From Reclinomonas americana ATCC 50394 (lineage: Eukaryota): DNA of 43,617 nucleotides. Below, piece by piece: positions 1 through 39,525 of the stretch. The notes beneath the pieces are model-generated. The model saw only the letters and a program-made list of their open reading frames with translations, was not told the DNA's origin and did no database searches. The stretch spans positions 281,787 to 325,403 of the forward strand of contig PS015014.1 in the NCBI GenBank assembly GCA_048213135.1. Reading direction: 5' to 3'. Both the position numbers and the translations under genes were made by a program. Each line of letters begins with the position of its first letter. Position 1 is the stretch's first letter.

Positions 1-2751
1 GAATCGTTGGCCAGCTCAAAACACCGAGCGATGAGCTGCTGGCACTTTTGCGTTCGCGCCGCATTCTCTGTCTCGTCGCCGTACAGTTCGCCAGCTCTGA
101 GCAACGACGTGAGAAGACCATGAGATAAACTGCAGAAAGAAAGCTCAACTCAACTGCTTGAGAAACTCAATGGCCTCCGCCACCAGTCCATCGTTGAACA
201 GACATGCTCCAAAGTTGTAAAAATGAATTCCGAGCATGGTGCGGCACGACTGCTGCTCCAGTAACCGGTGCAAGTGCTCGTCGTTGATGACACACCACAG
301 CCACGCACGCACTTGGTCGACGTGATTCCTGTTCGTGGTTCATAAAATGGTGAGTGATTTCCCCACAAGGAATGCTGGCAGTCATCGACACGCACTTGAG
401 GCGCTGCTGACCGGCAGCCGCCGCATCAGTGTCCACAGGCGCTGGACTGTCCTCTCCAGAGTGCTGCCCAGAGTCATCATCGTCGTCGTCGTCAAACATC
501 TCTGTGTCCTCTTGCGATGCCAGCGCATAATTCAGCGCTCCTTCCCCTCCGCCACTCTGACTGCCAGCGTCCTCTCCGGCACTCCCCTCTGCACACGTCA
601 CATCCACCAGAGCTCCAACGGCATCGAACAAAAATGCCGAAAGCTGCTCGAGCTGTTTTTGCCAGCATGTTAGCTTGTGCATGACTCCGAGACGACTACG
701 AGGTCACTGAACCTGCTCACGCATTGCCTTGTCGGCGGTGGCTGAGGAGGCCAATGCCGCACGATAGGCCTGAACGGCACATTCCAACAGCATGCTTAAC
801 CGGCGGCGATGTGTGGCCGATTGCATGCGGATGCACTGCTGGGTGGCCTTTCGTACCGAGCCGCCCATGTAACGCACGACACCGCGGAAAACCTTGCACA
901 GCAACTGCGGAACCTCATCCCGACTTGCACCGCTGTCGATTTCGCTGCACAGCTCACTGAAGGCGGTGATCAGCGGTTCGAGACGCTCAACTGCACACGC
1001 CATGGATGAGTGGAAATGAGAAGAAAGTTGTGACCAGCAAAGCAGCGGGTGACAAGATTTTGCGCACTTGTGGCCTCACACTCATCCACGCTGTCGTCCA
1101 ACGATGACCCGGTCAGCTCCTCCAACGTGACCGCCAGTGACCATATCAGTACGCGCGACTACACATCACACACATGTAAGCAAAACATGTCGTTGCTCCA
1201 GTGTTGCTCCCGCCTGCACCACGCAACATCAGTGCCGAGCCCCTCCACCCAATTCTGCCAATGGGAACTGCTCGAGGCGCTTCTCCACACGGTACTGGCG
1301 TGCTCGAGGCAGCGAAGCATGGGCATGACAGTGGTGGGAACCGCAGACAACAGCGGCTGACCGAGTTTGAAAAGCTGATCGTAAAACGCAGCACACACGC
1401 TCCACACTGCGCATTGGATCTGGTCAGTCACACGAAACGAATCATAATGAGACACACCCAGACACGCACCGGCGGATGTGGCCGGCGCCTTTTGTGTCAG
1501 AAAGAGGGCGTACTTGAGACCCTGTTCGAAGAACACAGGGTCGGTGCCCTCTGAGTTGCCCGCCAGCACATGGTCGACGTGAAACTGCAAGCCGAGCAAG
1601 CGAAGGCGAGCGGGTAAAGGGAGCACTGGAACTGCGTCGCCTTTCCGCCGCTTTCCACCGCCGCTCTTGCTACTGCTTGCAGTCGACGACGCGGGTATGG
1701 CAGGAAGATCTGCACACGCGTCGGAGGCTGAGGCACACTTGAAAGCAATCCTAAACATGGCGTCCAACTCGCGCATGCTGTCGGGAGAGCCGGCGGTTCT
1801 TGAACGCAGTTGCAGCCATTCGGCGGCCTGCATGAGAGCAGTCTCTGCAGCCGTAAGGTCGTCAGGAGTTGCTGCACCGGCTGCGGCCTTGGCCCACTGC
1901 AGAAGTGCAGTCACGACCAGAGCGCTGTACGAGTTGGTGTCCGTGACCGCTGCGTCGTCATCGAAAGAGAGTGAGTGAAGCAGACTCTCTCTTCCCTTTC
2001 GCCTTCCCCCCTTACCATTCGCTCCTGCTCTCTGCAGGTCACCACCACGCACACTAGCGAGTAGGGCGCATGCGTGTTGACTGCAGTCCACGCGCTCATC
2101 GCCGGCGTCCGTGCATCGTGCCGACAAGTTGATCCACAGCTTCGCCACATCCAGCGCATCCAGCTTGGTGTGCTCTCGCCACTCCGTCAGCAACGCCAGC
2201 GAGCGGCGTGTGATGTACAAGAGTGCTGCCATTCTACTCTTGCCGGCTGCGAGAAACGCATGTCAGTGACTTTGTCAGCGCACGACGCGGAAACAACACG
2301 CCCCACCTGCCGAAGCCGCCACTGCCGTCTTTCCCCATTCAGCCACTCCGCGCAGGCACCCCTGCACAACCTTGAGCAACACCGACGCAACCTCGCTGAC
2401 CAGCGTCCTACACAGCGTCATGTGAGTGGTCAACTTCTCACGTACACACTGACAGTCGATGCTCAACTTGCGCGCCCGCGCGTCGTCTTGAGAGGCGGCC
2501 GAGTGCTGCTCGGCGGCATCGAGAAGCGAGTCGAAGGGCCCACAGAGCGATTCGACATCACCGGGCTCCTTGACGAGTCGGAGCACACTGTCGAGTGCGC
2601 GACCCCGATTCTCCGCATCACCGAGCGAAAGAGTTTTCCGCGACAGTGATGACGATGAAGACGAGGAAGATGATGATGATGACGACGATGGTGCTGCTGC
2701 TGGCAGGGCGTCTACGTCACAGCTCTTGCCTTTGCCACGGCGTTGCGCCAT
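1..2751 (-). CDS. Multi-exon protein of unknown function (predicted helical, Ala/Leu-rich); 3' end runs off the window
   Basis: ATG at 2751 (MAQRRGKGKSCDVDALP). Long minus-strand ORF blocks (2275-2751, 1159-2232, 704-1003, 167-682) are separated by short GT..AG segments. No family motif recognised. Confidence 0.6.
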
Positions 2752-2834
2752 CGTTTCCCTCTTTTTCTCACACAATGTGACAATTGGCGCGAGTAACGGT
2801 CGACAGGACACCTCGAAGTGCAACACAAATTGTT

Positions 2835-4650: not shown

Positions 4651-4686
<36 letters not shown>

Positions 4687-7600
4687 AAGAAACATATGAT
4701 CAGAGGATTGGGTGGGATANNNNNNNNNNNNNNNNNNNNNNNNNNNNNNNNNNNNNNNNNNNNNNNNNNNNNNNNNNNNNNNNNNNNNNNNNNNNNNNNN
4801 NNNNNNNNNNNNNNNNNNNNNNNNNNNNNNNNNNNNNNNNNNNNNNNNNNNNNNNNNNNNNNNNNNNNNNNNNNNNNNNNNNNNNNNNNNNNNNNNNNNN
4901 NNNNCTGGTGTTTCCTGTCTCACGCCCCGAGCTACCAACCGTTGACTGCGTAAGTGATTGCGTCCGTGGGCTGACTGAACACGGCAGACTTTGCGCGCAC
5001 TCGCAGGTACATGGTGCTGGAGGCTGCAATCCCGCTGATATTGACCGACACGGACGTCGTCGAGGAGGTCACTTTGGTGCTGCCGGAGAAGTCGGCGGCC
5101 ACAGCATACTCCAACTCGTACGTCTCCGTCAATGACTGCGTGTAGCGAGGTGGTGAGCGAGTGCGTCACAGACGAAATACACGATTGACATGTGAGTGTA
5201 CCAGCGATGCCGTGCGATACGAGGCTTGCCAGCCGACCGTGAGAGTGGAGCCAGACAAGTTGCGTACGCACAGAGACAGTGGCCGATGCGGCGCAGATGA
5301 GCTTGTTGCAGCTGTGTTGATATTTTGGAGAAGGTCAGAGACGAGGAAATAGTAAGACAACAGGTGCAGCAACATGCACACACCGGTGGTGACTGCCGTG
5401 GCCACCAGAGACGGTGGTGACTCGCCAAACGAATTGATCGCAATCAAACGGAAGTAGTACACAGTCGAGGGTTGCAGATCAAAGGCCGTCACTGTCATTG
5501 ATCCCGACGAGCGTGTCACAGTCTGGTGTGGTGTCGGCAGCAGATGAGCAACAAAACGACGCTTTGGAGAAGGAGGTGAGGACAAGCGCCGAACACACCA
5601 GCGAGTTCGTGATCGGCGCGAGACCCGTGGCAGGCGGGAACGAAGCCGACGTGGACCATTCCAGTCGATATTTGGTAGGCATGGGCGACAGTGTATCGGC
5701 ACTCGTCCACGTGACATCGGTGGTGGTCGCCGCCGGCTGACGCGCAAAAAAGAAAGAAGAATAACAAACACAAGGTGAGTAACTACACGTTAGGTTGGTG
5801 CACAGCAGTGTTGCGCGGCCTCACCGTGGGCGTCGTGGTCAGCACGGGTGCCGATGGGACCTGACCGGCCACTGGCACCGCCGGACCGACAAAGGCACTG
5901 CGCGAACTAAGGGTGCCGGCATTCGTGTACTCGACCTTGAAGTAGTACGTGGAGCCGGTGGTGAGTCCGGTTACATCAAACGCCATGACACCACTCGCCG
6001 TCCAGCCAGAGTTGTTGGCGACTTGCGACGTGATCAAACTGTTGTCGTTGGCACTCGAGTAAATGTACACGCGACGTGAGGAGAGCGCAGTGTACAATCC
6101 GCCGGAGAACGACGGCACGGAGGCGACCAGCGTGACTGAGGTGGCGGCGATACTGGCCACTTGCGGGAGCGTAATCGCCGCCGGTGCCACGGCAATGTTG
6201 GCACCGGACACGACCAAACCGAACGACTGCGGCGCCTGCAGCACCTTGGTGGCCACCACACGCACCGTGTAGACGCCCACAGCAGGCGACGTGAGAATCA
6301 CTTTCTCGGCCGTGTTCTGATTATCTGTTGAGCTCTGCGGGATTGAGAAAGAGAGGGAGAGGGAGAGGGAGAGGGAGAGGGAGAGGGAGAGGGAGAGGGA
6401 GAGGGAGAGGGAGAGGGAGAGGGAGAGGGAGAGGGAGAGGGAGAGAGGGAGAGAGGGAGATTAGCAACCGTCGTCGTGCGGTGAAGGGCGAGTGGAGTGC
6501 ACGAAACAGCGTAGCCAAAGAGCTGGTTGCCCGTCTGCAGCAACGCGGCCGAACTGACAGTGGTGCCACTGTACACGGCCAGATCGAGGTCGGCCTGCAG
6601 TGCGGCTCCCGGAAAGTCGGTCCAGCACAGCGCAACGCTGACACTCGCACTGGTGCCGGTGACTGCAAACTGCGCCGTAAATGTTTGTCCCTGCGACAGC
6701 AGCGTCTCCTCGTTGGAGAGCACCAGTGTTCTGCACAATGGTCAGTCAGTCGACCGGTAACAAGCCTATCACGTGAGGAGCGACGCACGAAGACACGGTG
6801 CTTGGGTCGACATTGGAGCCCGTGGCAGCGACGGCCGACATGACATTGTCGAGAAGGACGCGACCAAAGCCTTGCACCGACGAGTTGACCTTGTCGGTGA
6901 GCGTCGAAATTGAAATCGGCGAGTCTGTGCGACCGCAGGTGAGCGCACAGTTTACAAAGAAAGAGGTGTGCTGCTGTCGGAACGCACTCTGATTGCAGCA
7001 AGTGCCGGAGATGCGCACAGCCGAGTTGATGAGCATGGCCTTGATGAGTGCGGCCGAGGGTGTGGCAATGGCCAACGACGACGCGCCGGTGCTGTCGGCC
7101 GAGAACGGGTACTTGGTACGCAGCCACTGCCGCACAAGTGCTGATGCGGACACAAACGGGTGAGAATTTGCACACACACATAGGGAACAAAAGGACGACA
7201 ATAGTAGGCAACGCACAAGCGGCACCAGCAACACCCGGCGTGGCCATACTCGTGCCTGCGGCGAGAGGGAAAGGATGAGAAAAAGTGGGCTGCTCGAATG
7301 TCTCACATCGGCAATACGTACCCTGCAGCCCGGTCGTGTGATTCGCCACATTCGTCACTGCGATGTGAGGTGCACGCAGTGAGCAGGAGAGTAGATAGAC
7401 AACGCCCTTACGAACATCAGCACTGCGTACCATCGGCACGAACACCAGTGCCACATATGTCGGAGCCCGGAGAAGTGGACTGTGAGAGAGCGGAAAACAA
7501 AACGCCCCTGCGCGGCAGACGTGTGTCAGTCACAGCTGACAATGCACAAGGGTCGACTCGGAACGTGACACGCAACGGACTGACGACGTGGACGCCAAAT

Positions 7601-10043
7601 CGGCCTTCCGGAGTGGGACCTGCGAGGCGAGTCAGATCTCGCTCGTTTCAGTTTCGCGTGCGACCGAGTGCGTGCACACACCTCGTGATGAAAAGTACAT
7701 CATGTTGCTGGCGAGGGTTTTCCAGTTCGTTGCACCCACACTCAACACGTTCTTTGCCGACGCTTGCGAACTGCACGGGAAAAAGAGTCACTCAATGTAT
7801 CTCGCGCGGACACAGTGGCGACAGTCACGCAACGAGACGGAGGAGGTCTTTGGGCCCGAGTTACCAGCCGCGAAAATCACCAGCGTATCCTACAATTCAA
7901 ATGGGGGTGGCGTGGGTACAACGTTGGATGCACAGAAAGGGAGGCTGGCGGCACCACGCACTCGATTGTCCCAGGCGAATTCATCCAAGTCGGTGGACAT
8001 GGAGTCGTACGAGCCGGCGCCGCCGCCCCACGAGTTCGAGATGATGGTGGCGCCGCTGGCTCGCATCACCGACAAGTACGCAGCATTCACATCCACCGGC
8101 AAGTACAGCGACGACTGTGGTAAGCAAAAGACGGTGAGCAGGCAATACCACCTCTACACCTGGAGGCGGGGCGGCGGTCTCACCGACGATGACGGGCACA
8201 CAGAGTTTGTCATAAACAAACAGTCGCACTGAATGGTCGAGGGGCACTGGCAGCCGCCAGGTTGCATGCACCCCACGTCGTAGAACATGATGCGTGCTCC
8301 CGACGCGACGCCGTTGTAGGACGCCAGTGCGGGGGCCGACGACACGGCAGCACCGAGTGCGGTGCCAGACTGCACAGGGACAGCGATGGATGAGCCCGCC
8401 GGTGACTCGAGCATATACACGACAGTGTACGCAACAACATGAGTGCCGTGACCGCCTGTGATGCCGTCGACCGAGTCCATGAAATTAAAGTAGCCCTTGA
8501 CTTTGCGATGTGTCGACGAGAACACGGTGGACACGGAGTTGGAGTACGAGATCGATGTCGACGAGTCGTAAAAGTAGCAGGATCTGGAGAGAAAAAGGAA
8601 AGGGTCACAGTGAGGCGCGCGGGAGAAGAAGAAGAGACTGCAACGAGACGAACCCAGTGTCGAGGCCGGAATCACCAACACCTGTCGAAGACATGGCGCG
8701 CGTGTTATGGTCACGCAATGGTTTTCCTTCGAGGTGCATCAGCAGCGTACTCACCTATGACCTCGCTGGAACCGGTGAGCACGCTCGAGTATGGCGTGGA
8801 GCCGGAGACATTGGTTTGAATCACCCAGCGCAAGTCTGTGTTGAAGTTGGAGACGATTCGCCGTTCCTACAATACACCACACACACACATTGATTGAGCA
8901 GCCAGCACCGACAATCATGTTGAAGGCAGCTGCGTACGCACATGCACGACAATCACGCGCGGGTGTGCCTCAAAGGGCGCAACCACCGCCGTCAAGTCCA
9001 CATCGGGTGCGAATCCGAAAATCACCCACGATCCACCGGCCACGGCCCAGCGACGAACTGCATTCGTGGTAGGTGAGACAGGCGGCGCACCCCGATCGGC
9101 ACCACGACAGGCGCACACACCTTCGATATTGCTGGCATGGAGCGCCTCGACAATCTCTGCTGCGAATTGCTCGTACAGTGGATCGAGTGTATCGGCCGCC
9201 ACATGCGCCTGCACCAGCAGCGCCGGCACTTCCTCTGTCTCCGACTCTGCACTCGTGGCAAGGGCTGTGCGAGGGAGTGGTGAGCGGCGAAGCACAAGAT
9301 GAGCAAGAAGAAAAAGGTGTGGCGTGACGAAACATTGCCGTCGTCGCATACGATCGGCCAGGTGCGTCGACACGCGACTGGGCACGACTTTGCTGTACTC
9401 GGCCACCCACACCGACGAGGCCAACCGATCGCGAATACGGATCATGGCCTGCCAGGGCCCGTACACCAAAAACGCATTGTCCGGCACATGAATCACCGTG
9501 AAGCGGCGATCGGGAGCCACATGACCCAGTGGATCCATCTGCGCGCACTGTTAGTAAGCCACCGGCAGACAAAGAAAGGAAAAAGCAACACCACTTGAGA
9601 AATCGAACCTCGCGCAGCACATTTACAATAGAGCGTCGTGTCTCCAGCGACACTTGCGCGCCCACCAGCGACACCAAGTACAGTCGCCGCTCAGTCAGCG
9701 ACTGTCGCGTGGTCTCCACTGCAGTGGCCAGTGCCGATGGCACCGCCGACGTGTCCACCACATGACCAGTGGCCGGCAGTCGAATGAACCGCTGGGATCA
9801 TCATATCACAAAACATGATGAGAATTGTTACTGACCATGGTTCTCTCATGCACTCACCTGCCCATCATCACTGCTGCGCGCAACATCAGCAGTGTCGCTG
9901 TCATGATCGTCATTGTCTCCTCTCGCAAATGGGTGTGAGGAGGATGAGACTGCTCTCGCAGACACCATGCTCACTGTTGCGATGATCATCAACGTGACGA
10001 CGAGCAGTGTCAGTCGCGACCATCGTGGTGGCTTGGGACGCAT
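2835..10043 (-). CDS. Type I membrane S8 subtilisin-like serine peptidase (KP-43/TagC-like) with FN3 repeats, PST mucin-like stalk, TM helix and cytosolic tail; about 20 introns
   Basis: Hydrophobic N-terminal signal (LTLLVVTLMIIATVSMV). Spliced catalytic motifs: GVGDSGLD, GHGTHVSGT, FAAGNSG, AKNVLSVGA, FSSRGPTPEGR, GTSMATPGVAG, PSAALIKAMLINSA, QGFGRV. KP-43-like C-domain (ALCWTD..DLDL). FN3 signatures (VTGLTTGSTYYFKV, LQPSTVYYFRLIAINSFGES). PST repeats and TM helix IPLIAGAAGGGGVALIVLIVVIVVCV followed by RRHRRR. Confidence 0.9.
4215..4350 (-). repeat. Coding tandem repeat (Pro-Ser-Thr)n, mucin-like stalk
   Basis: Translates as PSTPSTPST...PTSPTTPTTPTSPTPS, N-terminal of the TM helix of the S8 peptidase. 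Confidence 0.85.
6350..6460. repeat. (GGGAGA)n hexamer microsatellite inside an intron of the S8 peptidase gene
   Basis: Directly visible tandem GGGAGA array. Confidence 0.95.
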
Positions 10044-14468: not shown

Positions 14469-16534
14469 ATGGACGTGTCCTTTGGAGGAGCCTCTCTGAG
14501 CATCCTCGTGTGCCAGAGTGTGTATGCAGCGCTGCTGGTTGCCGGTTTGTCGTGGATGATTGTGTGGAGAAAGGTGTGTTTTTTTTCGCGCGCGCGTGTT
14601 ACTCTTTCTCTCACTGCAGCTGTGTGTGTGTCTCTCATAGAGACCACCAGTGGCACAGCGGTCTGTGTGGCTGGTGTCCGGCTCGGTGATCGGACTCTCC
14701 ATGTTTATCTGCTTCTCGGTGTTTTTCCGCGCCAATGCCAACGGACCCACACTCAGTCACACCGCCGACTTTATCTCCGACATTGGTGGGCGCTCTCACC
14801 ACACGCTCACACTCTCTTCCTCTTCTCCTTATCGCGTATATTCATGTGCAGGATTCACGTGTTATTTGGCAAGCACATTTCTGCGCATTTATCGCCTGCG
14901 TGTGCTGTACGATGCCAACATTGAGAAGGTGTTGATGAATGAGCAAGAACATGGTGCACTGGCACAGCCGCACTCCTTGGATGCAGCTGGAGCTGGTTTG
15001 TAAGGAGCGCGACTACCAATTATGCGATGCATATGTGATTTGCGTTGGTCGCCTGAAACATTGCGTGCGCATGCAGCGGATGTCAGGCGGAGTATGCAGG
15101 CGCGCGGAGCTGCTGCGATTGCGAGTTACCTGGCGGTGCACAAGCGCAAAATAAGACCGGCAGTGCTCTGGTTTTGGTTCTTGGCCATTATGTGCATACG
15201 CATCTCCATGGCTGTGTTCGGCTTTTTCCGCACGGATCCGGTGCAAGTTTCGCCGCTTGCATGCTGCAGCTGTGGTGTTTAATGGTTGACCGTCGTGCGC
15301 AGAATGTGTTCTCGTATTTGGACACGGTGATGGGCTCGCTGACCTCGGCCATCTTCATCGTTGTCTTCATCATCTACTCGTACCGGCTGCGCGTCGTCAA
15401 CGACGCATTCGGGCAGACGCTTGAGCTGTACACCACGTCCACTGCCAGTATCATCGGCTGTGCCATTGATCAGTTTGTGGAGTGGGGTGACACGGCCACG
15501 TGGGCCGACTGGCTCTTCGAGGCACTGCAGCTGCTGCTGTTCGTGCTGGCCGTTGGTGTGCCCATCTTCGTCAGCTTCAAGTACGTACAACATCGCCTTC
15601 TCCATCTTTCCCCTCTCCCACTCACTCTACTCTCCGCAGATGGGCGCGGCACAGCACGCTGCACACGATCCGCAACACCAGCCTGCAACGACAGCGATCA
15701 CGAGCCGCGTCCGGCTTTTCTCTCACCGAATCGCTCACGGAGAGTGTACTACCGATCCTCGAGGACTCCGAGGGCCGTGCAGCACTGCACGCGTTCCTCG
15801 TACGCGAATTCAACGTCGAGTTGCTGTATTTTTATGGTGCGTATCGATGAAACTAATTTTGTTTACTAAGTGTGCTCACTTATAATACGACTGCGACTCG
15901 GGGGCGCACAGACGACGTGGTGCGCTACAAGAAGCTGGGTGAGTGAGCGCACGTGTTCTTTGTCTCCCTTCTCTCTACAAAAAGTAACATGCGCGCGCGT
16001 GCTGCCAGCGGCTGAATCTAACAACTCGGCGACGCTGCTGTCGACGGCCAGAGTCATGGTGGCCAAGTACTTTGAGTTGGACAGCGTCATGGAACTGAGT
16101 TGCGTGATACGCCACGTCTCGTCTCACTCGCCGCGGTGCGCCCGCACCCTCATTGTGTGCATCGAATGAGCAGATATTTCGGCGGCCGAGCGGGACTCGG
16201 TCATGAACGCTGTGCGGGGCGGAGTTGTATCCAAGTCCACCTTTGACAGGTTTCGTGAGCGCGCGCGTATGTGAGTTGTAACGAGGGCGGCGACTCAGCG
16301 TCAATGTGTTTGCGATGGTGCAGACCGTTTCACTCGATCATGTTGACCATGCATCAAGACACGTATCCTCGCTTCGTCAAATCGGCAGAGTACAAGAGCA
16401 GTCTCCAACGGAGTCTGCTGTCCAACGCCCGACTCAACTTCCTCCAGGGAAGCGATATGGAGCTCAGAAAAATCATCATGGACGAGGACGCTGAAGAGGA
16501 GGAGGCAGCTCGCGTTCTCGGCGCGAGGAGATAG
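14469..16534 (+). CDS. 7TM-RGS protein (seven-transmembrane domain fused to a C-terminal RGS GAP domain)
   Basis: Seven hydrophobic segments after splicing (e.g. LSILVCQSVYAALLVAGLSWMIVW; WLVSGSVIGLSMFICFSVFF; VLWFWFLAIMCIRISMAVFGFF; WLFEALQLLLFVLAVGVPIFVSF). RGS motifs ILEDSEGRAALHAFLVREFNVELLYFY, AKYFELDSVMELNIS, IMLTMHQDTYPRFVKS. Confidence 0.9.
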
Positions 16535-16572: not shown

Positions 16573-17976
16573 TCAGTCAGGTGATCGCGCCTCGAACAGA
16601 GTGGTGTACACCTCTGTGGTGCCTGCTGCGGGTCCACTCAGCAATGCGTGGGCGCGTTCCAGTTCAGCGACGACACGTGGTAGGGTGTCGCGCGTCAGGT
16701 GGCGAGCGGCATTCCACCCCGGCGCCACGGGATCCTCCACCGCAAAGAGCCAGGCCTTGTGGTCGCGCCGGAAATCGGTCTTGGTGCCAAGCGCTCCGCT
16801 GGTCACCGACAGGACGTGCTTGCGCATGTCAAAGGCGCCGCCGACGAGGAACTCAAAGAAGCCGCGCAACAGCGCACCGAGTGTCAGGCCGCTCTCATCC
16901 AACTCGCCAAACAGCTGCTGCCATCGCCAATCGTCGTCCTCGTCTTGCTCCTCCTCCCCCTCCCCCTCCCCCTCCCCTTCTCCCTCTGTGTCCTCAACCT
17001 CCGCGTCCACACACTCGTCGTAGTCTTCGTAGGATGACGCCATGCGCGTGTCGACAGGCGGCAGACCGTGAATCACTTGCAAGTATGCTGCGCATGTACG
17101 GACATGAATGATGTTTCTCGGGTTGGAAGAGCACGCCGCCACGAACCAACAGCTATCAAGCTCCAGCAGTACGAGGTGGGCGTGCCGTCACGCGAACAGT
17201 TGATTGCTCGCCGCTTGGCCCAGTGTCTGCAGCAGGTCAGCTAAAGGAGAGAACGTACGACAGCGGAGGAACACAACGCACTTGACCAGCAGGATCAGCA
17301 ATCTCGCGACTGCAAACTCCTCGACAAAGAGGCGCAGGAGGTGCGTGTTGCACAGCGCATCGGTGTTGTTGACACTAACATCGGCATCGAAACCACTATC
17401 GGAAAAACAAGAAGAGACAACTCAGTTGCTGCAAAAGAGAGATGCAACAAGCTTCCAAGGCCGCAACGTCTGCGTATCACGAAAGCGCACAATAGGCACG
17501 CGAGCCTCATCCACGAGCTCCACATTCTCAAAAGCTCCGCTCTCCGCGCGTCTCTTGCTGACCAATTGCGCGCGCACCTGCTTCAGCACGCGGATCTGCA
17601 TGTCGACCGAGTGCCACTCGCTGTGCACGATGCACACGTCGACATCGACGTTGCCACGCAACGCCATGCCCGAGATGAGACTGCCAAAGACGTGCACGCG
17701 TGGAGCGCTCCGTGCTGAGCTCATAATTAGCTGCGGACAACACGCTCTTTGTCTCTCACCCTCTCTCTCTCTCTCTCACACACACGCACCTGCAAGCTTG
17801 CTCGCGGCAGCCTCCACCAGTGGCCGCACACGACGAGCGACAAAGAGCAGTGCTTGTCGTCGAGTGCGCCAGGGTTCGGCGACTTGGCGCACCACTGCCC
17901 GCACATGCGCCTCCAACTCAATGGGATCACAGGCGACTGCCTCTGCTACTCTCCGCCTGCTGCCTCCACTGGCCAT
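16573..17976 (-). CDS. Non-canonical poly(A)/poly(U) polymerase, Cid1/Trf4-like nucleotidyltransferase
   Basis: Pol-beta NTase motif VHVFGSLISGMALRGNVDVDVCI; ARVPIVRF; third Asp in DADVSVNN; KHWAKRRAIN...TSYCW; PAP-associated motif AVEDPVAPGWNAAR. Confidence 0.88.
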
Positions 17977-18082: not shown

Positions 18083-20013
18083 TCAACGCCGCGTCTGCTG
18101 TTGCCGCAGCAGGGCCTCGGCAAAGCCCTCCAGGTCCTGCTCGATCTCGCCCGTTCTTGTCTTTACCCACTGGTCGAGCACCGTCTGCTCGTCGCGCAGG
18201 AATTGCTGGAGAGCCACGTCCACTGTGTTGCGACTGGTCAGCATGCGGCAAGCGAGAGGGAGACGTGGGGGAGACGGCAAGGAGAGAACCTTGCTCGAGG
18301 AGCTGCTTCCGATAGGCGTCCACGCGTGACTCGGTTTCATGCGCAAACTCCTGGCTCTTCTGCTTGAGATCGGAGAACAAAAACTCGCGCCGCTCCTGCA
18401 ACTTGCGCTGTCCCAACATGTCCAGGCCCTGCACACACACATACACAATGAGGACGCAGCATTCCGGCAGGATGTCATGTGGAAGGCTGGTCGCACCGAC
18501 ACTTGCGGCAACCGCGGTACCGGCGGCAACGAGGCCGGTGCCATGGGTGCCGGCAACAGTGAACCGGGTGCCTGCCTTGGTGCCACCGCTGGCATGCCCG
18601 CCGACATTCCACCCTGCAAAATCGACGCGCGTGGGTAACACAGGAAGCCGAGCACGCACCACACGATGCAGGCGTACACGCAAACCATGCCAAACGATTG
18701 CGGTGCGGCCGAGTGCGCACCGCCCATGAACCCAGTCGCCACTGAAGGTGCCCCTGCCTCTGTTTGTGATGTGCACGTGAGTAAAGCAAACCACCATCGA
18801 CCGAAAAGACGCCCAGCGACGCACGGTTGCGCATGAACGGCATGCCGGGTGCCACCGAGCCGCCCATTGGATCGTGAGCCTGCGTGGCAAGCAAATGAGC
18901 GTCGACACTTCCTCACACACTCTCTCGCTCACTCACCTGAGGGAAAGGAACAGCTGGCGGCATCATGCCTGGTGCGCCCATGACACCACCCACCGCGACA
19001 CCCATCATGCCTCCATGCCCACCCATCATGGGGAACTGCTGCTGCTGCTGCTGCTGCGGCATGGTCATCGCCGCGTTGGCTTTCCGCAGCACCGTGATGC
19101 TCAGTGGCACCGCACTCAGCTCCCCGCTCGTCGTTTTCGCTGACACACACAGTGAGCCAAACGACAACGCAAGGGCGAGAGGCCGAGAAGGAGAAGAAGA
19201 ACGCACTGGGATAGCCGACCACGGTAATGACATCGCCGGGGACCAAGCTGTCAACGACACCGCGCAGATCTCCACGAAAGTCACTGACGCGCACACACCC
19301 ACACACATTGAGCGTGGAAGGATGGAGCAATTGGCGCGCGCACACACGCAACGTCTGATCACACATGAGCTGAAACTTGACGACATCGTCGCCCTTGATG
19401 TCGACGAAATGCAGACGCTGGTTCACCGTTCGCTTGCGCGTCACCGTGCCTACACACACACATACAAGTCAGTGCACACAGAGATAGAGAGAAGCACGCG
19501 CGCGCGCACGCACCTCCAATCGTCTCCACGCACTGCCGCCGTCGCTCATTGGCCACCACCGACGCGTACTTGGTGCGAAACTCCTCCAGCGACAGACGCC
19601 CTCCACTACCACCACCTCCACCATGTCGCTGCACACATACACACCACTCAACACACACATGTGCGCGCGTGTGCATCACTCTCTCACACACTCACCTGCA
19701 CAGCAGCCGCGGCCGCTGCAGCCGCTGCTGCAGCAGCAGCTGCCTGTTGCGCCGGCGTTGTTGTTGTTGTTGTTGCCACTGCCACTGCTGCAGCACCTCC
19801 ATTCATTTTTCGCTGCTGCTGCTGGGGAGCAGCAGGTGCTTGCTGGTCAGTCTTTTGTCGCTTGAAATGAGGTTCGCGACTGTCATCCTCCTCCTCCTCG
19901 TCGTCCTCGTCTTCGTTATGGTTCCTCTCGTGGTCAGCCTCCTCCTCCTCCTCCTCTTCTCCTTCTCTTGCTGGATCGTCGTCTTCTGCGTCGTCACGCA
20001 ACGCTCTCTTCAT
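18083..20013 (-). CDS. Protein with LysRS-type anticodon-binding OB fold, acidic N-terminus, Q/M/P/G-rich linker and C-terminal coiled coil; no synthetase catalytic domain
   Basis: Spliced LSLEEFRTKYA..ETIGGTVTRKRTVNQRLHFVDIKGDDVVKFQLM..LVPGDVITVVGYPTKTTSGELSAVPLSITVL resembles the LysRS N-terminal OB fold. It is followed by low-complexity sequence and LQERREFLFSDLKQKSQEF...LLRQQQTRR*. Confidence 0.72.
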
Positions 20014-21466: not shown

Positions 21467-23896
21467 TTAGCGGAAACCGCGGTAGCTGGCAACCGGCGGC
21501 AGGTTGGAGGCAAAGTTGCCACCGCCACCGCGGCCGCCGCCGCCACCACCACGGTAGCCACCATAACCACCACCACCACCGCGACCGTAGCGGGGATTGC
21601 CCGACGGGCCACGCGACGACATGGCCATGGACTGCAGGTCCGGCGGCACCTCACCACCGGCCTCACGCAGAATCTTGACAATGTCGCGTGCCAGCTTGGC
21701 GTCCTTGACGCGGTCAAAGAACGAGTACGACACACCACGGGCACCAGCACGGCCTGTGCGGCCAATGCGATGCACGTAGTCCTCGGCGTTGTTCGGCATA
21801 TCGTAGTTGACCACGTGTGTGATATCCTTGACATCTGCACAAGGTGAAGCGAACGCACAAGGCGCACAGCAAAAAAAGAGACACAAGAATGGCACACGAA
21901 TTAACAACAATGACGACAACAGCAACACCAATGACGCAGCAAACACACACACACACGCACAAAAGCCCATGAACAACAGACACACAAAGGAAAGGAAGAA
22001 GAACAAGAGAAGAGAGAGAAGGAAAGTGAAGAACGAGAGTATAGAAATACACAGCGAGAAAGGAAAAGGCACCACCACCGCCCAGCCCGCCACAAAACCA
22101 CCATCCGTCGTCGCCACCACCACCACTGCCACCAGCCACCACCGCCAATCTTTTCTTCACGGCGCGCGCGCGCGCGCGCAAGCCGAGGTACACGACGTCG
22201 ATCGTCGTGCTCGGCTCCAAAATGCGCGCAACGCAGGATGGAAGGAAAATAAAAGAGCGGAAAAAAAGGCGAGCAAAAGAGAGAAAAAGGACTCGGACTA
22301 CCGACAGGATCCAATCTCACATCGTGAGGGAATGCAGTAGCCAAATCACTCGTCTCTCCCTCCCACCTCCCTCCACTCTCCTCCTCCTCCACCCCGGCAC
22401 GCACGAAACTTGCGCGACACATCAAACGAGTGCGCGCAAGCGTGCGCGCACACACACATAAAGGCGGTGGCTGGGTCGAGTCGGCCCCCAGCAGGCCGAC
22501 CAAGGCAGTGGGCGTCTCGTACCTCGAAGAGCAGCACAGCACACGGTGGCGCCGGACCGACACACAGCAGTGTGCCGGCGCATGCCGGCCGCTCTTCGAA
22601 TCAACAATAACAGTGGCGGTTGGCAGTGCGTGCACGCGCGCGCAACCACCGCTGCTGCCGATGCCTCGAGGCAGCAAGCAAGCAATGATCGCGCGCGCGC
22701 GCGCATGCACGCATTCATGCGCCCAGAGAGAGGGCGCTGACAACGGATTCTTCGAGGGGTGGCCAGAGGCTCCGGCAGCTGCAACAACCACGCACACACA
22801 CACATGCCCAACGACACAAATCCCCACACACATAGATTCAACCCGCCCCACACTTACCGAGACCACGAGCAGCCACGTCCGTCGCCACCATAATGGGGTG
22901 AGTGCCGGTCTTGAACTCGGCGAGCACCCAGTCGCGCTCCTGCTGCGTCTTGTCACCGTGAATCGCCAGCGCCGGGAAGCCGTCCATGCGCAGATCGCGA
23001 GTGATCTGGTCGGCGTTCTTCTTGGTCTCGCTGAAAATGATGACCTTGGACTTGCTGGAGGGCTGCATCACCTTTTCCAGCACCTTCATCAGGCTGTGGG
23101 AGGCGGAGAGGAGAGGTAAGTATTGTGCAGCAGGAGGGAAGAAATGAAAAGTCGATAGAAAGGCACGCACCACCCGCGCTTCTGGTAGCCGTCGACAAAC
23201 TCAAACAGCTGAGTCACGTTGTGGNNNNNNNNNNNNNNNNNNNNNNNNNNNNNNNNNNNNNNNNNNNNNNNNNNNNNNNNNNNNNNNNNNCGGCAGCTTC
23301 GACAGGTCCCAGTCGCGAATGTCGCGCAGGTTGGCGCCCAGCTGGCTCATAGAGTCGCCGCCGCCGCCAAAGCCACCGCCACCATAGCCACCACCGCCAC
23401 TGCCACCGTAGCTGCTGCCGCCGCCGTAGCCTGTTAGAAGAAAAAAGAGAAAAAGTGAGGACATGTGCAGATGCACATGCGCGTGGAGGAACAACACCAA
23501 AAAAAGCAAGCAAGCACGCACCACCACCGTAGCCACCACCCGAGGAGGAGCCACCACCATAGCCACCACCCGAGGAACCGCCATAGCCGCCAGCGCCGCT
23601 GCCGCTGCCGCCTGTTCACATAAAAAAGAGTCAGCGCCCGATTTGGAAGCACACACACACAGAAAGGGAGCGCAACTGCCATAGCCGCCGCGCGAAGACG
23701 ACGAGCCGCTGCCGCCAAAGTCGCGGTCAGGGGAGCTGCGGAGTGAGCTGTGGTGACGTAAGCAAGAGAGAGAGAGTGAGTGATGGACATGGATCAAGTT
23801 GGAAATGACCCCCACTTCAAACCTCTTGCGATCAGAAGAGCGCGAGTAGCTGTCGTACTCACGGTCGGAACGTCCACGGTAGTCGCGATCAGACAT
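21467..23896 (-). CDS. DBP2: DEAD-box RNA helicase DBP2/DDX5 (p68); N-terminal RecA domain falls in an assembly gap
   Basis: RGG/GYG-rich termini; [101 protein letters not shown]. Confidence 0.95.
21835..22857 (-). other. 1023-nt DBP2 intron in helicase motif V containing several hairpins
   Basis: GTAAGT donor at 22857, AG at 21835-21836; interrupts ARGL-D in phase 1; about 15 times the typical intron length in this window. Confidence 0.9.
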
Positions 23897-24170: not shown

Positions 24171-25196
24171 ATGGCGGCATCTGCATCGAACGGCGGCATG
24201 GAGGACCTGCCCGACTTTGAGGACCTGGACGAGTTGTTGCAGGGCCACGCCGAGCCGGAGCTCGTTGAGAAGAAGTTCCGTCACTCTTTATCTCTCTCCT
24301 CTGTTGTCTCTCGCTCTCCGCTGTGAGCATTCCTACACGCTCCTTCTTTGTATCCGGGTGTGTATGTGCTCCTGCGCACAAAGGGAGAAGTGTGCGTGTG
24401 CGTGTTTGTGCGTGCGCTGTCTCGGGAAATGGCAAACCCCGTCTTCTCCGCACCCGGCTCCTGTGCTTGCTGCCCGTGTTGCGTTGTGCCCGCCGAAGTA
24501 GTGTGCGGAGAAGAGGAGGAGAGGGGAAGGGGCGTGGGCCACAGTGCGTGCAACTGAACCAGGTCCAGTTGGTGTTGTCCGTCACTGTGGAACTCGCCCC
24601 CCCCCCCCCTCCTTCTCTCCTTGCACTGTTCGTTGAGCTTCTCGGGGCGCGCACCTTTTCCTCCATGCCTCCTCCTCTTCCTCCTCTCCTTTCTTTTCCT
24701 GCGACAACACACTTGTCGTTGTTGTGTCTTTCGTCCCGACATGCCGCCATGCACATGTCCGCCGCCTTCTCTCTCTCCTCCTCGCCCTCCTTCCCCCTCG
24801 TGCCACTCACCACACTCTGCTGCAACACACAGGGCTAATGCCTATNNNNNNNNNNNNNNNNNNNNGCTCATTGTGCGTCGGCGGTGCTGCTGCCGTCGTT
24901 CACGTCGTCCGCCCAATGAGTTCACTCACTTTTTTGCTTGCTTGCGCATGCAGTTGACCAACACGGGAACGCTGTCGGCGGTGCTGACTGTGGTGTTCTT
25001 TATTGGCCATGTTGCGTGTCCGTGGCGCGCCGAAACGCAAACCTTTCGTCGTCATCTAACTCGCGGACCTGTGCTGCAGGCGATTGCGTTGAACATGGAG
25101 GAAAAGTGGCACCTCAGCGGCCGCACGTGGGTCTGGACGGTGCACATCTGCCTGGCGCCGTTCTTTGTCGAGCCTCTACTGGCGCTCATCGGCTGA
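24171..25196 (+). CDS. Hypothetical small membrane protein; internal exons uncertain
   Basis: N-terminal MAASASNGGMEDLPDFEDLDELLQGHAEPELVEK. C-terminal hydrophobic exons LTNTGTLSAVLTVVFFIGH|AIALNMEEKWHLSGRTWVWTVHICLAPFFVEPLLALIG*. One short N-gap. Confidence 0.5.
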
Positions 25197-31178: not shown

Positions 31179-31774
31179 TCACTCCCTTTGCGTGGCGAGC
31201 TTTGCACGCTCCCGCCACTCGGCGAGCAGCGAGTACTTCTCCTCGAGCGCCTTGCGCATTCTCTCCAGCACCTCCTCCAGTCGCGTGGTGTTCTCGCGAA
31301 TCGCCGGCAGCACCTCGCCTACTGTGCGCTCCACCAGCACACCGCCCACCATGCGGAAACACCGCCGTGCGCCATCGAGCTTCTCCAGTTGTCCCATCAG
31401 CGTACTATATAATGTGAAGGGAGTGGCATGTGTGTGCGTGAGCGATCAAGAGTGTGTGTGTGTGTGTGCTGGGGAGAGCGGTTGAGTGTGTGTGTTGTGT
31501 TGTGTATGAACATGTCGGTGAGCGCACGCAACTGGTGCTCGCTGCGTTCCCGCTCCAGGTCTTGCACCTTTTGCGAGTGCGACGACACCTCCTTCTGCAG
31601 CGCCTCGTACTTTTGCACCACCTCCTCAGGGCTCATATCCTCAGCATGTGCAGAAGATGATGATGATGATCCTGAGCCAGATCCGCTGGCTCCTCCTGCT
31701 GGTGATGATGCTGCAGGTACGACTGCTGCTGATGCTGCTGCTGCTGGTGCTGCTGGTGGCGCCGCGTCGCTCAT
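31179..31774 (-). CDS. PFDN2: Prefoldin subunit 2, 1 intron (31405-31532)
   Basis: EVVQKYEALQKEVSSHSQKVQDLERERSEHH|TLMGQLEKLDGARRCFRMVGGVLVERTVGEVLPAI; RCFRMVGGVLVERTV.EVLPA is the PFDN2 signature. Confidence 0.93.
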
Positions 31775-33350: not shown

Positions 33351-34230
33351 TCACATGAACACGGACGTGTATGTGGGCACCTGCACAGCAGCCGCGCGGT
33401 GAGCAACAGAAGAGGCGGGGAGAGTGCACAGCTGCCGGCGTAACCTTGGATTTGATAATGGGGCACGCCTCGGGTCCACCGTGCTCCTCGAGGCACTGCA
33501 GTGTTTCTTCGATTTTCGGCTTGAGCTTCTTGTCAAAGGCCTTTTTCGATATTTGACCCACGATTTGCACGAGATGCTCATTCAACGACGGTCCCACCGC
33601 GCGCGACAGCGACTGAATGGCGTCGAGCGCCGACAGGAACGTCTCCTGATCGGCACCCAGCAACGACACGCGCAGTGGTCCCACCAATTTGTTCAGCAGC
33701 GGCGTTACCTTTTCCTCGGCCGCCTGCCCCTCGCGAGTGAGACCCAGGCCCACCACACACACAGACGCGATGCAAAAACTGACCGTGGCACCCATCATAT
33801 CCTTCCACGCCAGTCGCGCCATGGTCACATACGGATGCTTGGTTTCGCGCAGCCCATCACATACCGTCACCAGCAGCTGCGAGTAGTCCAGGTCCACCAG
33901 CGGCACATCCCACGTCAGATACATACTCGACGAGGTGTGCTGAATGCGTGCCGGGATGGATCCGGCATTGTAGGCGGCCTGGAACGGCGTGGCCTTCTTG
34001 GAGGGCGCCGCAAACGGATCTTACCAATAACAAGAACAATGACAATCAGGGCTCTGCCATACACACTCATTCCCTGTGCCGACAACAGAGGGACGCACTC
34101 ACCGACGACCTTGTGCGTGTCATACCGCGAACGTGAGATGCGAGTCGCCGCCGCAGCACCACTGCTGCTGCCAGCGCCACCATCATCCTCTGTGCAAAAA
34201 ATCAGGACAAGGCAGTTGGTGGTCACTCAA

Positions 34231-35067: not shown

Positions 35068-35142
35068 CTTTCCCCTTCTGCACACAGACTGGAACAACGA
35101 AGGACGACGATCAGGACATCATCGTACCAATACGTAGCAGAG

Positions 35143-36891
35143 ATGCGCGGCACACGCGCGCTCGGCGACTGCACGTTGCCGATCGTGGCGCTGTCGATTG
35201 TGGCGCTGCTGTCGTTCATGGGCCTGGTATGGGTCGGCTTTCCATCGTCGCCCACGCAGCGCGCATCATCGTCGTCGTCGTCTGCGTCATCCGCGTCTGC
35301 GTCATCATCGCTGTCGCTCACGCCACCACCACCATCGCCTTCCGATGCCTCTCGATCGGGCAAGGCCGCTGCTGCTGGTGGTGGTGGTGGAGCGACAGGT
35401 CGTGCTCGTGGCACCTCTGCGCAACAACAGCAGTCGCCAAAGCAGTTTCCGCTCTCTGCCAGGTGGCGTGATCTGTGTCCGCTCGGTCGGTGGCTCGAGG
35501 CGCAGCCTGTGGTCACTGAGCAGCGTTGCGTTCGGAGGCTGGTGCCCCGCTCGCGCCGTCTTCCTCGTCTCTCACTCGTTGCGTGCATGCGCAGTCTTGT
35601 CACGCATTGGCGAAAACTGTGCGCTGATTGTGCGCTACCTCGCACCGTGGATGGAGAGCGGCATTAGCGGGGCGGCAGTGGACACGGCACTGGCCAAGTT
35701 TGCGCCGAACAAGTCGCGTCTCGTGGTCTTCTTCTACAATCACGAGAGCAACACGCTGGAGTGGGACGTGATGCATCCGACCGCCGACGGCAAGTCGACC
35801 AGCGATTACCGAGTGTGCGTTTGTTGTTTGTTTCCCCAGCGCCCTCCCCTGACTCCCTCCCTGACTCTGCTCTCTGTTTGTGTGCCTGGCCGTGCAGGAA
35901 AAATATCGCGCGCATGATCCTGCGCGTGATCACTGCCGGGCCGCCACTGTCGCATTCGTTTGTGTTGCCGGTGGAGTGCGACGATGTGCCGAAGCAGCGC
36001 AAGAGTCAGTGGGTGCCGTCGGAGCAGCTGCCGATGCCGCCGTTCTCGGCGGCGTTTCTGGCACACGAGGAGTACTACGATGTGCCGCTGCCGGATTTTG
36101 CGTTTGAGAACTGGGAGGCGGCGTCGTTGGAGGACTACGAGGAGGAGGTGCGGCGAGTGAAGGAGCGAGCCGACAGCACGCCGTGGGAGCGGCGTACGCC
36201 AAAGGCCGTTTTCCGTGGCTCGCTGTCGTCGGGATGGTGGGGCGATGAGCCGAGTCCACGTGCACTGCTGTTCGAGCAGTGTGCCAACGTGACGAGTGTG
36301 TGCGATGTGCGTGAGGCGCGCAAGTGGGCCGGCGCGGACGCCGGTGACGAGGCGGAGCAGAAGCGGCAGGCTGGATATTTGTCGCTGGCCGAGCACTGCG
36401 ATTACCAGCTCATTCTCTCGCCAGAGGGCAAGACGTGGACCGCCCGCACCAAATACCACATGTGGTGCGGTTCGGCCTTGGTGGTGCCACGCCATCGCTT
36501 CCACGAGTACTGGTGGCCGTTGGCGCGTCCGGGTGTCGACTACCTGCCCGTGGAGTACGACTCGCGCACGCTCGTGCAGCGCCTGGAGCGCCTGCTGCTG
36601 CCGCCACCCGCACCCTCAGAACCCAACAAGCAAGTGACGGTGGCCGGCACTGGCACCGGTCAGCCGCCGCCCGGCACCGAACTACGGCGACTCGGTCTCA
36701 ACGCTCGCGCGCTGGCCGAGCGACATTTGACCCGCGAGGCCGCCCTGTTGTACCTGCGCATGATGCTGGAGATGATTGGTGCGCTGGAACAACTCGGCGG
36801 TTTCGATGTCACTCGGCGGCTCAGCGGCCGCCCTGTGCCCGTCAGCGAGCTATTACCGCGGTCTCGCTCAAAAGGGCGCGGCGATGGTTGA
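35143..36891 (+). CDS. Glycosyltransferase family 90 (CAP10/POGLUT-like), type II membrane protein, 2 introns
   Basis: Signal-anchor IVALSIVALLSFMGLVWVGF; DVPLPDF; PWERRTPKAVFRGS; LSLAEHCDYQLILSPEGKTWTARTKYHMWCGS; EYWWPLARPGVDYLPV. Confidence 0.88.
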
Positions 36892-36995
36892 TATTAGAGA
36901 GAGTAAACTTGGCCGAAATTTGCAACTTCCGACGTGCAAACAAACGTCCTGCGTCCCGTGCGGCCGTTTAGGCGACGGAGATCTTAGGCGATTGA

Positions 36996-39525
36996 ATGAC
37001 GTCTTTTGAGCTGGAACACGCCATCGGCTTCTCTGGCAACGTGCCACACAGTGTGCACTTTCACCCCAATGGCCAGGATTTCGTGTATGTGGCGGGCGGA
37101 ACCATTGGTGCGTTGCGCAAATCTGTTTTTCTCTTCTCCTCTCTTCCCTCCTCCATTGTGCTCACTGTGCACACACACATAGTGATCTGCGACCTCAATG
37201 ACTCCCACAATCAAGTGTTCTTGCGCGGTCACGATGACGAGATCACGTGCCTTGCGATTTCATCGTCGGTCAGTGCTTGTCAATCACCCTCCTTTCCCTT
37301 GTCTCTCTGGCATCTCCACTGAGTGTGGAATCGTGTGGATAGGGTCGGTATCTGGCGTCGGGACAGCGAGGCGACAACTCCGACGTGATTGTGTGGGATT
37401 TCGAGGCGCGATCGATGCTGTACCGCTTCAGTGAGCACGATCATGGGATCTCGTGTGTGTCGTTCTCGGAGGACGAGGTGCATCATGTCGCCTTCTGCTG
37501 CTGTCTTCTTTTAGGTTGCCGCTAACAGCTATTGATTGCGACAGAAACTGCTGGTGTCGGCCGGCGATGCGCACGATCGTCGCCTGATTGTGTGGGACTT
37601 GTCGTGCGGTGGCATGGTGGCGTTCCAGTCGGCTGTGGAACCCGTGGACACGGTGACCATGGGCGGTTTCGAAAAGGGTACGCTTCGCCTCTCTTCCAAC
37701 CCAGCAGCGTGGTTGTCGCGCTGAAACGAGAGAGATGAGTGCAGATGTTAAGCGGCGGCCGACTCGCAATTATGTGATCGCCACTGGCGGCAACAAGAAG
37801 CTCACGCTGTGGACGCTGGATCCGTACGGTGGTGAACTGCGGTCCGATATCGTTGCGTTGTGCAGGCGCGCGGCATGCGTTTTCCACGTGCAGCGCCTTA
37901 TCCCCTCCCCCATGCAGATCAACATTGCTTCCATCACGCGCGACTATCGTGCACTGCGCTTCTCTGCCGACGGCGAATTCCTCTACGCCGGCACCGACTC
38001 GGGCGACTTTGCCGTGATTCAGATGAAGAGTCTGGTGTTTGCCGGCACGATTCGTGCGTCGGCCAACGGCATCAAGTCGCTGGTGAGCTGCGCCAAGCGC
38101 ACACTCTTCGTGCCGCATGTGTGGATGTATGTGCTTATTTTTCCGTCCGTCGCAGGTCACACTGCGCAATGGTGGTCTCTGTGTGGGCGGAGGCGACGGA
38201 TCGCTGGTGGCATATTCAGGGCAGGGCAAGGAACTCACGGAGGACTCGCGCACCTACCTACAGGGTGCCGTCATGTCACTCAGTGTGACACACGACGAGG
38301 TACGTGTGGATCTTGGCGATTGTCGTCTGACAGGCACACTCACTCTCTTGTGACGCAGGTGGAGCTGCTGGCCGGCACGTCACGAGGCTTCTTGCATCGC
38401 GCACGAATTCGTGATCTCATGGATCTGGTGCTGCTCGAGGCGCACTCGGCGCCGGTGACCGCAGTGGCGTACAACAGTGGCTTCTCCGATCGATTCGTTA
38501 CCGTGTCCGCGGATGGCTCGTTCCGCCAGTGGGACTCCTCCGACTACACCACCGTGTGCAAGGGCGAGACGCACGGCTCACCCGCCACCTGCGTCGTGTA
38601 CTTGACCGAAGTCATTCTCGTTGGCTGCGAAGACGGCAAGATCCGGTTCGTGCGCGCTTCCCATCGTGCTCGACTCCCTTCGCACCCAGTCGACTGATCT
38701 CTGCAACGCAGGTGTTTCCACTCCGACACTGGCGAATTCTTGTGGGATCTCACGGCACACAGCCGAGCCAAGATCACGGCACTGGCGGCGTCGCGCAACG
38801 AAAAGTTCTTCATCACCGGCGCCGCCGATGGTGAGATTCGTGTGTGGCTGCTGCGGTCACGGGAGATGGTGTCGAGTTTCCGGGAACACTCGTCGGGCAT
38901 CACACAGGTACATTTTCGCTGGTTGCATATCTTGGTCTGCACCCTCGTCGCCACCTCACGTGCGTGCGTGCGTGCGTGTGCAGCTGAAAATCTTTGAGGA
39001 CGACGCGCATGCACTGTCGAGCAGCCGTGATCGCTCGATGTTTGCTTGGGATCTGCGAGTTGCGATGACCCCGTCAATGTGTCACGATTTCTGTCCATCG
39101 TGTTTGACCGTCTTGTATGTTCTCGCAGGCCGAGCGCCGTGTCAACACCATGTCGCAACGGCAAGGAGCCATCAATGACTTTGCGCTGGTTGCTGATCAA
39201 ACACAAGTGCTCTCTGTCGGTCAAGACAAGCGCATCTCGTTGCGTCGTCGGCCAGTGGTGTGAAGCCGCAGCGCTGCAGCGACTGACTCGTGCGTGTAGA
39301 TACTGGGACTTGCGAACGGCGGCCCCCTACAAGCTGATTGACGCGGCGCACTCGGATGACATTCGGACGATCTCAGTTCGTTGCTTGGCGTGCATGTCCC
39401 TGTGCTTCCATTTTGCGTGCTCACTAGCGTGTGCAGTTGAGTCACGGCAATGCCTACGTGGCCACTGGCAGTGCCGACCAGATTGTGAAACTGTGGGACT
39501 TTGAGGGTGCTCTCCTCTCCGAAGG
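36996..39525 (+). CDS. CFAP52/WDR16-family ciliary WD40 protein (orthologue or paralogue); C-terminus runs into N-gap
   Basis: MTSFELEHAIGFSGNVPHSVHFHPNG..FLRGHDDEITCLAISSSGRYLASGQ..VIVWDF; many WD repeats; SVGQDKRISYWDL; YVATGSADQIVKLWDF; about 13 short introns. Confidence 0.85.

Follow-up and report, generated by a model that had tools for sequence, protein, structure and literature searches.

GTTGCG(T) marks a second class of 5′ splice site, one base out of step with the first, in an intron-dense stretch of Reclinomonas americana DNA

Introduction

How does a spliceosome choose the bond to be cut when the conserved bases of a 5′ splice site lie one position farther into the intron than they do in neighbouring introns? 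The question is raised by a stretch of 43,617 bases from Reclinomonas americana ATCC 50394 (contig PS015014.1, positions 281,787 to 325,403), which we refer to as the window and within which all coordinates are given. The window has a GC content of about 57%, is interrupted by 12 N-runs and consists of intron-dense, eukaryotic DNA with short introns, the 10th, 50th and 90th percentiles of intron length being 57, 67 and 88 nt in our own gene model, apart from one intron of 1,023 nt. A preliminary description of this DNA listed 16 introns that start with GTTGCG, two of them only as probable, together with several related forms, and proposed that they are routinely read in a shifted or bulged register, which would suggest a divergent U1 or U6, a U1 variant or a relaxed spliceosome. 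All of these motifs are present at the positions and on the strands that it listed. The analysis reported here confirms the observation on GTTGCG donors and partly supports its interpretation.

Results

Counted over the entire window, the hexamer GTTGCG shows no enrichment, since the two strands together contain 51 copies, against 44.65 +/- 6.12 in shuffled sequences, and 16 of the 100 shuffles reach 51. The main donor hexamer GTGCGT is over-represented, with 93 copies where 51.5 are expected, a number that none of the 100 shuffles attains. GTTGCG is enriched specifically at the starts of introns, as was established with a gene finder of our own, which combines codon log-odds, an acceptor position weight matrix, a branch motif and intron length, and which was run with a flat donor model that demands GT only, so that nothing past GT influences the parse. 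In these donor-blind runs GTTGCG was the second commonest donor hexamer after GTGCGT, with 11 of 174 donors at a penalty of 7 and 9 of 123 at a penalty of 8.5, against a background of 51 among 5,440 GT sites (0.94%; binomial P = 1e-6 and 3e-6, respectively). A donor table learned by expectation-maximisation (EM), starting from the donor-blind parse, gave GTGCGT for 18 and GTTGCG for 11 of 101 introns. When the gene finder was trained on donors with G at +5 only, it chose none of the 21 sites checked, comprising the 16 GTTGCG sites and five related forms. Donor-blind parsing recovered 10 of the 16 GTTGCG sites (1227, 7833, 16099, 17467, 20803, 23676, 25011, 37852, 39059 and 39239), seven of the 16 are fixed by homology or profile coordinates (7576, 7833, 8435, 17467, 37852, 39059 and 39239), and the two kinds of support together cover 12 of the 16.

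The junctions fixed by homology were obtained from a scan in which all GT..AG pairs between fixed anchors were considered and the resulting peptide was scored against homologues with BLOSUM62, a procedure that is blind to the donor motif. Three of these junctions lie in a gene for a FAP196/CFAP52-like WD40 protein on the plus strand (37415-39592 and beyond). A HMMER search of 1.84 billion representatives with the read-through open reading frame as query returned 150 homologues, of which 37 full-length sequences were taken into a MAFFT alignment; a word-based search that used a WD40 exon of 95 residues gave no matches. The alignment of the spliced model with the 37 homologues is free of gaps across all three junctions. 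The introns concerned are 37852..37917 (66 nt, donor GTTGCGTT), 39059..39128 (70 nt, GTTGCGAT, joining WDLR/AER, the slash marking the junction) and 39239..39299 (61 nt, GTTGCGTC, joining DKRI/SYWDL), each of which was found in the donor-blind runs and topped its scan, with scores of 47.9 versus 39.2, 73.2 versus 59.2 and 51.5 versus 37.3, respectively.

Three further GTTGCG introns interrupt a minus-strand gene (about 9989-4932) that encodes a subtilisin-like protease with fibronectin-like repeats. The sole homologue found for this gene is P0153, a transcript-derived sequence of 929 residues with PF00082, and the Pfam scan of the subtilisin read-through piece did not match Peptidase_S8. Scanning against P0153 placed at the top the introns 7508..7576 (69 nt, GTTGCGTG, HVVS/PGV; 32 versus 25), 7771..7833 (63 nt, GTTGCGTG; 64 versus 55), which was also found donor-blind and in which read-through meets a stop, and 8370..8435 (66 nt, GTTGCGTA; 124 versus 116). 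The last of these is in frame and contains no stop. It splits the catalytic His motif HGTHV/SGT, and tblastn of P0153 reports a 22-residue insertion exactly there. A seventh junction was fixed by profile continuity, in the minus-strand gene for a Cid1/TUTase-like nucleotidyltransferase (about 17800-16573), whose intron 17396..17467 (72 nt, GTTGCGGC) was likewise recovered donor-blind. Residue 80 of the 81 residues upstream corresponds to position 112 of Pfam MTPAP-like_central and residue 2 downstream to position 116, with one split codon between the exons and no gap in the profile.

Among the related forms, the GTTACG intron of the PACRG gene (33381..33444, minus strand, 64 nt, GTTACGCC; gene 34277-33351) stood up to the same scan, scoring 113 versus 98. 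It precedes the last 9 codons, and its removal gives the C-terminus IIKSK/VPTYTSVFM, which matches the homologues P0154 and P0155; the exon upstream accounts for Pfam ParcG positions 1-176 of 183. This donor has G at -1. Controls with ordinary donors passed the same tests, namely 7961, 7681, 38083, 38300 and the RPL13e and Helicase_C junctions, and the continuity of profiles is a working test because both the ordinary RPL13e donors and the 1,023-nt helicase intron pass it. As for U2-type introns, removal of GT...AG segments restores the frame and the collinearity with homologues at seven GTTGCG junctions and one GTTACG junction. The U12-type donor [AG]TATCC occurs in none of the 102 introns of the model described below.

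These results bear on the simplest objection, that GTTGCG is merely a common hexamer near true donors and its apparent use a product of chance or of the gene model. Its lack of enrichment across the window would suit that explanation, as would the 15 sense-strand copies inside genes that are unused as donors. The donor-blind enrichment (P about 1e-6), the eight junctions fixed by homology and the fact that most GTTGCG sites have no in-frame alternative donor with G at +5 speak against it, and we regard an artefact as extremely improbable. GTTGCG(T) marks genuine GT-AG spliceosomal introns, which form a second donor class, and the earlier claim of a real and frequent donor holds.

A cut three bases downstream, which the preliminary description had itself named as an alternative, would turn the same sites into GC-AG introns (GTT/GCGTG), with GTT staying exonic. 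A GC donor is in frame with the same acceptor at nearly all sites, and cleavage there would put G at +5. In all six homology tests, however, the GT donor outscores the GC donor, the extra residue lowering the score from 124 to 119 (8435), 32 to 28 (7576), 64 to 55 (7833), 47.9 to 43.4 (37852), 73.2 to 63.7 (39059) and 51.5 to 42.3 (39239), and the Pfam profile positions run without a gap across 17467. Each margin equals one residue and so falls short of proof against GC-AG introns; cleavage at GC is nevertheless disfavoured, and we consider it very unlikely.

To compare the donors with one another we used a class-aware version of the gene model, with two donor classes and curated gene regions. 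It contains 102 introns, of which 67 have G at +5 (class A, including 21 with GTGCGT), 27 start with GTT and have G at +6 but not at +5 (class B) and 8 have other forms. Since both classes are built into the model, these counts are partly circular; they draw independent support from the donor-blind and homology results. Class B comprises 15 GTTGCG, four GTTTCG, four GTTGAG and one GTTACG donor, with three odd ones; the 15 of 102 agree with the earlier estimate of very roughly one GTTGCG intron in seven among about 100. The preliminary description had also proposed comparison with a position-independent donor model, and such a model predicts 0.63 GTTGCG donors in this intron set, where 15 are seen.

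The consensus of class A is G/GTGCGTG, with G in 47, C in 38, G in 67, T in 46 and G in 27 of the 67 introns at +3 to +7. Positions +4 to +8 of class B copy it, with G in 20, C in 20, G in 27, T in 18 and G in 13 of the 27, which amounts to a displacement of the intronic consensus by exactly one base. The view of GTTGCGT as the main donor GTGCGT with an extra T is upheld. The individual forms correspond one to one (GTGCGT and GTTGCGT, GTGAGT and GTTGAGT, GTACG and GTTACG, GTTCGT and GTTTCGT). Only T serves as the inserted base, since inside genes none of 7 GTAGCG, 52 GTCGCG and 65 GTGGCG copies is used as a donor. In length, branch motif and acceptor the two classes do not differ. The median intron length is 69 nt in class B and 68 nt in class A, the class B acceptors are CAG in 22 cases and TAG in 5, and a branch-like CT[CGA]A[CT] within -45 to -7 occurs in 18 of 27 class B introns, 50 of 67 class A introns and 14% of random 39-mers, a comparison that is partly circular because the gene model rewards that motif. 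An all-against-all blastn-short comparison of the 102 introns for introner-like repeats gave a single 15-nt match, which links two introns of class A, and none within class B; the class B introns are not copies of one element.

The two classes part company on the exon side of the junction. Class A donors carry G at -1 in 43 of 67 cases, class B donors in 3 of 27 (Fisher P = 2.4e-6). For GTTGCG itself, said in the preliminary description never to follow an exonic G, the test for depletion of G at -1 gives 0 of 15, where 4.86 are expected from codon-position composition (P = 0.003). We also assembled an exon-independent set of 23 class B sites, each donor-blind or verified by homology and chosen without regard to exon bases, in which the last exon base is A in 7, T in 6, C in 6 and G in 4 cases, and G in none of the 13 GTTGCG sites. 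For this set the class A exon profile gives a better fit when moved by one base than when left in place, the gain being 8.6 to 16 log-likelihood units.

A displaced consensus together with the loss of G at -1 is what would be expected if pairing with U1 small nuclear RNA (snRNA), and with U6 as well, were routinely shifted by +1 and cleavage still took place at GU. The extra T after GT would put the whole class A consensus one base farther from the cut; U1 snRNA, and then U6, would pair with the UGCGU core identically in both classes; the first intron G of class B would take the place held in class A by the last exon G; and cleavage would still fall in front of GU. Such a shift would set the +1 G on the U1 base that otherwise faces -1, so that the preference for G at -1 should vanish, and no extra assumption is needed to account for its loss. 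The snRNA bases taken to pair, and the nature of the U1 5′ end, are inferred.

The same displaced intronic consensus would be predicted by a bulged register, in which U1 pairs normally with -1, +1 and +2, one of the two U residues at +2/+3 is looped out and the duplex continues on GCGU. Because a bulge next to an identical U is degenerate, such a register would account for the restriction of the inserted base to T, and it has been validated in human cells, where 68 of 201,541 5′ splice sites (0.03%) are predicted to adopt a bulge at +2/+3 (PMC4856993). A bulge would, however, free the U1 base that faces -1, and the preference for G at that position should then remain, contrary to the 3 of 27 class B and 0 of 15 GTTGCG donors counted above against 43 of 67 in class A; the 8.6 to 16 log units by which the unmoved exon profile is worse point the same way. 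On this evidence a bulged U seems to us unlikely. The loss of G at -1 fits the shifted register, which we favour with about an even chance of its being correct.

Pairing energies, computed with a human-type U1 5′ end as printed in PMC4856993, are among several points that weigh against the shifted register. The lowest-energy duplex is shifted in only 6 of the 27 class B sites, the +1 G is left unpaired in 12 of the 27, and the mean free energy (dG) is -1.9 kcal/mol for class B, compared with -5.7 kcal/mol for class A. On the exon side, the moved profile is no better than a uniform one for the 23-site set (-95.4 versus -95.7), so the exon data show a lost preference for G at -1 and not a positive shifted exon signal. 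In addition, the partial circularity noted above attaches to the 102, 67 and 27 introns of our own class-aware model, and the junctions and the roles of U1 and U6 are read from sequence alone, in a single window of 43.6 kb.

Judged by these energies, either the host U1 would differ from the human type or proteins and U6 would carry more of the recognition. The first of these is also the basis of another explanation, a dedicated or altered U1 snRNA, whose complementarity to GUUGCGU would reside in an additional copy or in an unusual 5′ end, so that there would be two RNAs or one that differs from the human type. The weak pairing of the human-type U1 5′ end with class B and its moderate pairing with class A would be accounted for in this way, and class B, at 15 to 27 of 102 introns, is too frequent for a set of tolerated weak sites. 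A change in snRNA has also been raised as a possibility for the related GTGCGTG consensus of Ostreococcus (PMC2483917). Yet, if the variant contained one inserted base, G at -1 should once more be enriched, which is not seen, and we think it improbable that an altered U1 is the explanation.

The remaining GTTGCG sites differ in their support. Four were found donor-blind and have closed read-through: 1159..1227 (minus strand, 69 nt, GTTGCGTG), in an unnamed gene; 16099..16173 (plus, 75 nt, GTTGCGTG), within the part of a multi-pass membrane protein gene that encodes its RGS domain, where that acceptor can otherwise be reached in frame from GC donors only; 20803..20869 (plus, 67 nt, GTTGCGCA); and 23612..23676 (minus, 65 nt, GTTGCGCT), in the Gly-rich N-terminal part of a DEAD-box helicase. 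The intron 25011..25079 (plus, 69 nt, GTTGCGTG) is weakly supported, being found donor-blind at penalty 7 only and having an open read-through. A candidate of 57 nt at 21202..21258 (plus, GTTGCGTG), absent from the preliminary description, was found donor-blind at penalty 7 and by the class-aware model.

Two introns rest on frame logic and on the later models. The first (31405..31532, minus, 128 nt, GTTGCGTG) lies in the gene for prefoldin subunit 2 (31636-31179, minus), where the frame joins in phase 2 only, giving SEH/H/TLM. Exon 2 matches Prefoldin_2 positions 37-99 and PFDN2 in the PDB from residue 59; the spacing of the junction is not fixed because a PDB search with exon 1 gave no PFDN2 match. 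The second (35525..35594, plus, 70 nt, GTTGCGTT) lies in a gene for a family-90 glycosyltransferase (35143-36891, plus), has closed read-through and was returned by a 4-mer EM model and by the class-aware model; its acceptor could be reached from one other GT donor, 39 nt upstream. At 19284..19352 (minus, 69 nt, GTTGCGTG) a candidate intron with a weak acceptor score of -1.7 is read through by the models because it is in frame and stop-free, and at 29507 an N-run begins 24 bases downstream of the candidate donor. Five of the 16 GTTGCG introns (7576, 8435, 19352, 25011 and 37852) are multiples of three without an in-frame stop, too few for testing, and their retention would preserve the reading frame.

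Of the related forms in the preliminary description, 33444 was sustained, as shown above, and three others fared less well. The donor at 8644 (GTTGCAGT), with a score of 70, loses to an in-frame GTTCGT donor nine bases upstream that uses the same acceptor and scores 80 (8584..8653, minus, 70 nt, GTTCGTCT), so that the 8644 junction was probably misplaced. This pair, GTTCGTCTC followed by GTTGCAGT at 8653-8644, constitutes two in-frame GT donors nine bases apart with one shared acceptor, and their alternative use would add or drop three residues beside the catalytic Asp motif. The GTTTCG donor at 16250 is rivalled by GTGAGT at 16271 in both the donor-blind and the class-aware models. The GTTTCG candidate at 6507 (6335-6507, minus) would begin an intron of 173 nt that is largely a (CTCCCT)n microsatellite, and the P0153 alignment does not settle its junction.

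The genes of the window were identified by Pfam, PDB and homologue searches; in exon-by-exon Pfam scans, 7 of 10 short exons had no family. The membrane protein (14469-16420, plus) has many membrane spans and ends in an RGS domain, the last exon tested covering Pfam RGS positions 95-115 of 117, and we take this architecture to be that of plant-type seven-transmembrane (7TM) RGS proteins. The intron of 1,023 nt belongs to the DEAD-box helicase (23896-21467, minus) and lies at 21835-22857 with donor GTAAGTGT; it is about 15 times the median length and rich in low-complexity sequence, and Pfam Helicase_C positions 79, 80 and 81 continue across it. The helicase model flanks an N-run of 66 bases (23225-23290), which separates its Gly-rich N-terminus from the Helicase_C half. 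The DEAD/Q-motif half is entirely absent from the model, and this N-run must therefore conceal far more than 66 bases. In the gene for ribosomal protein L13e (31963-33088, plus), the intron 32310-32388 combines the donor GTCAGC with an AAG acceptor, a pair that seems real because positions 38 and 39 of Pfam Ribosomal_L13e abut across it.

No tRNA and, at the gathering score, no Rfam family was detected in the window, and even at Rfam E<=1 it yielded no snRNA gene, only sub-threshold microRNA (miRNA)-like and other matches. A long hairpin-like inverted repeat at 24492-24638 resembles several unrelated miRNA families below threshold, on both strands and with at best 47 bits against a gathering score of 99; it is probably a mere palindrome. 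CT, CA and GT repeats fill many introns and spacers of the window.

Discussion

Noncanonical U1 registers have precedents. In human cells both the shifted register and the register with a bulge at +2/+3 have been proven, and noncanonical registers of all kinds are predicted for about 2% of sites (PMC4856993). The human shifted sites (Roca and Krainer, 2009, as presented in PMC4856993) resemble class B in having the consensus one base farther into the intron, no G at -1 and a cut at GU, and the test oligonucleotide for that register, ACA/GUCAAGUAU, has a last exon base other than G (PMC4856993). They are rare and atypical, however, whereas in the window the fixed form GUUGCGU accounts for about 15 of 102 introns, and for about a quarter when the related forms are included, the pairing here being predicted. 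The human sites with a bulge at +2/+3 (Roca et al., 2012, as presented in PMC4856993) share with class B an extra U after GU, followed by the normal consensus. Their share in human is hundreds of times lower than that of class B here, which does not have the preference for G at -1 expected of a bulge.

The main donor class of the window has its closest likeness in the Mamiellophyceae, green algae in which Ostreococcus and Micromonas have the canonical donor AG/GTGCGT(G) (PMC2483917, PMC3879977). What they have in common is the G/GTGCGTG consensus and a branch motif of the CTGAC or CTCAC kind, and the relevant passages of these two papers mention no GTTGCGT class. The window is far more intron-dense than Mamiellophyceae genomes, and the likeness is one of donor and branch motif. 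In the open-access literature searched we found no description of a GTTGCGT or GUUGCGU donor class.

A more far-reaching possibility, which we advance as doubtful, is that two 5′ splice-site registers run side by side as the normal splicing code, with about a sixth to a quarter of introns marked one base off the cut. Such a code would call for an additional species of U1 or a changed U1 5′ end, or else for an active site of U6 and Prp8 that sets the cut independently of U1.

In practical terms, gene finders that use a single, position-independent donor model will miss or misplace GTTGCG junctions. For the mechanism of splicing, a few unusual human sites and engineered reporters are the main source of what is known about how the exact bond is chosen, as distinct from the initial binding of U1. 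If GUUGCGU serves about 15% of introns genome-wide, the organism would offer thousands of natural test cases and would reveal whether snRNAs co-evolve with shifted donors. Should the two-register code prove true, it would provide a natural system in which the marking of splice sites is uncoupled, throughout a genome, from the choice of the bond to be cleaved.

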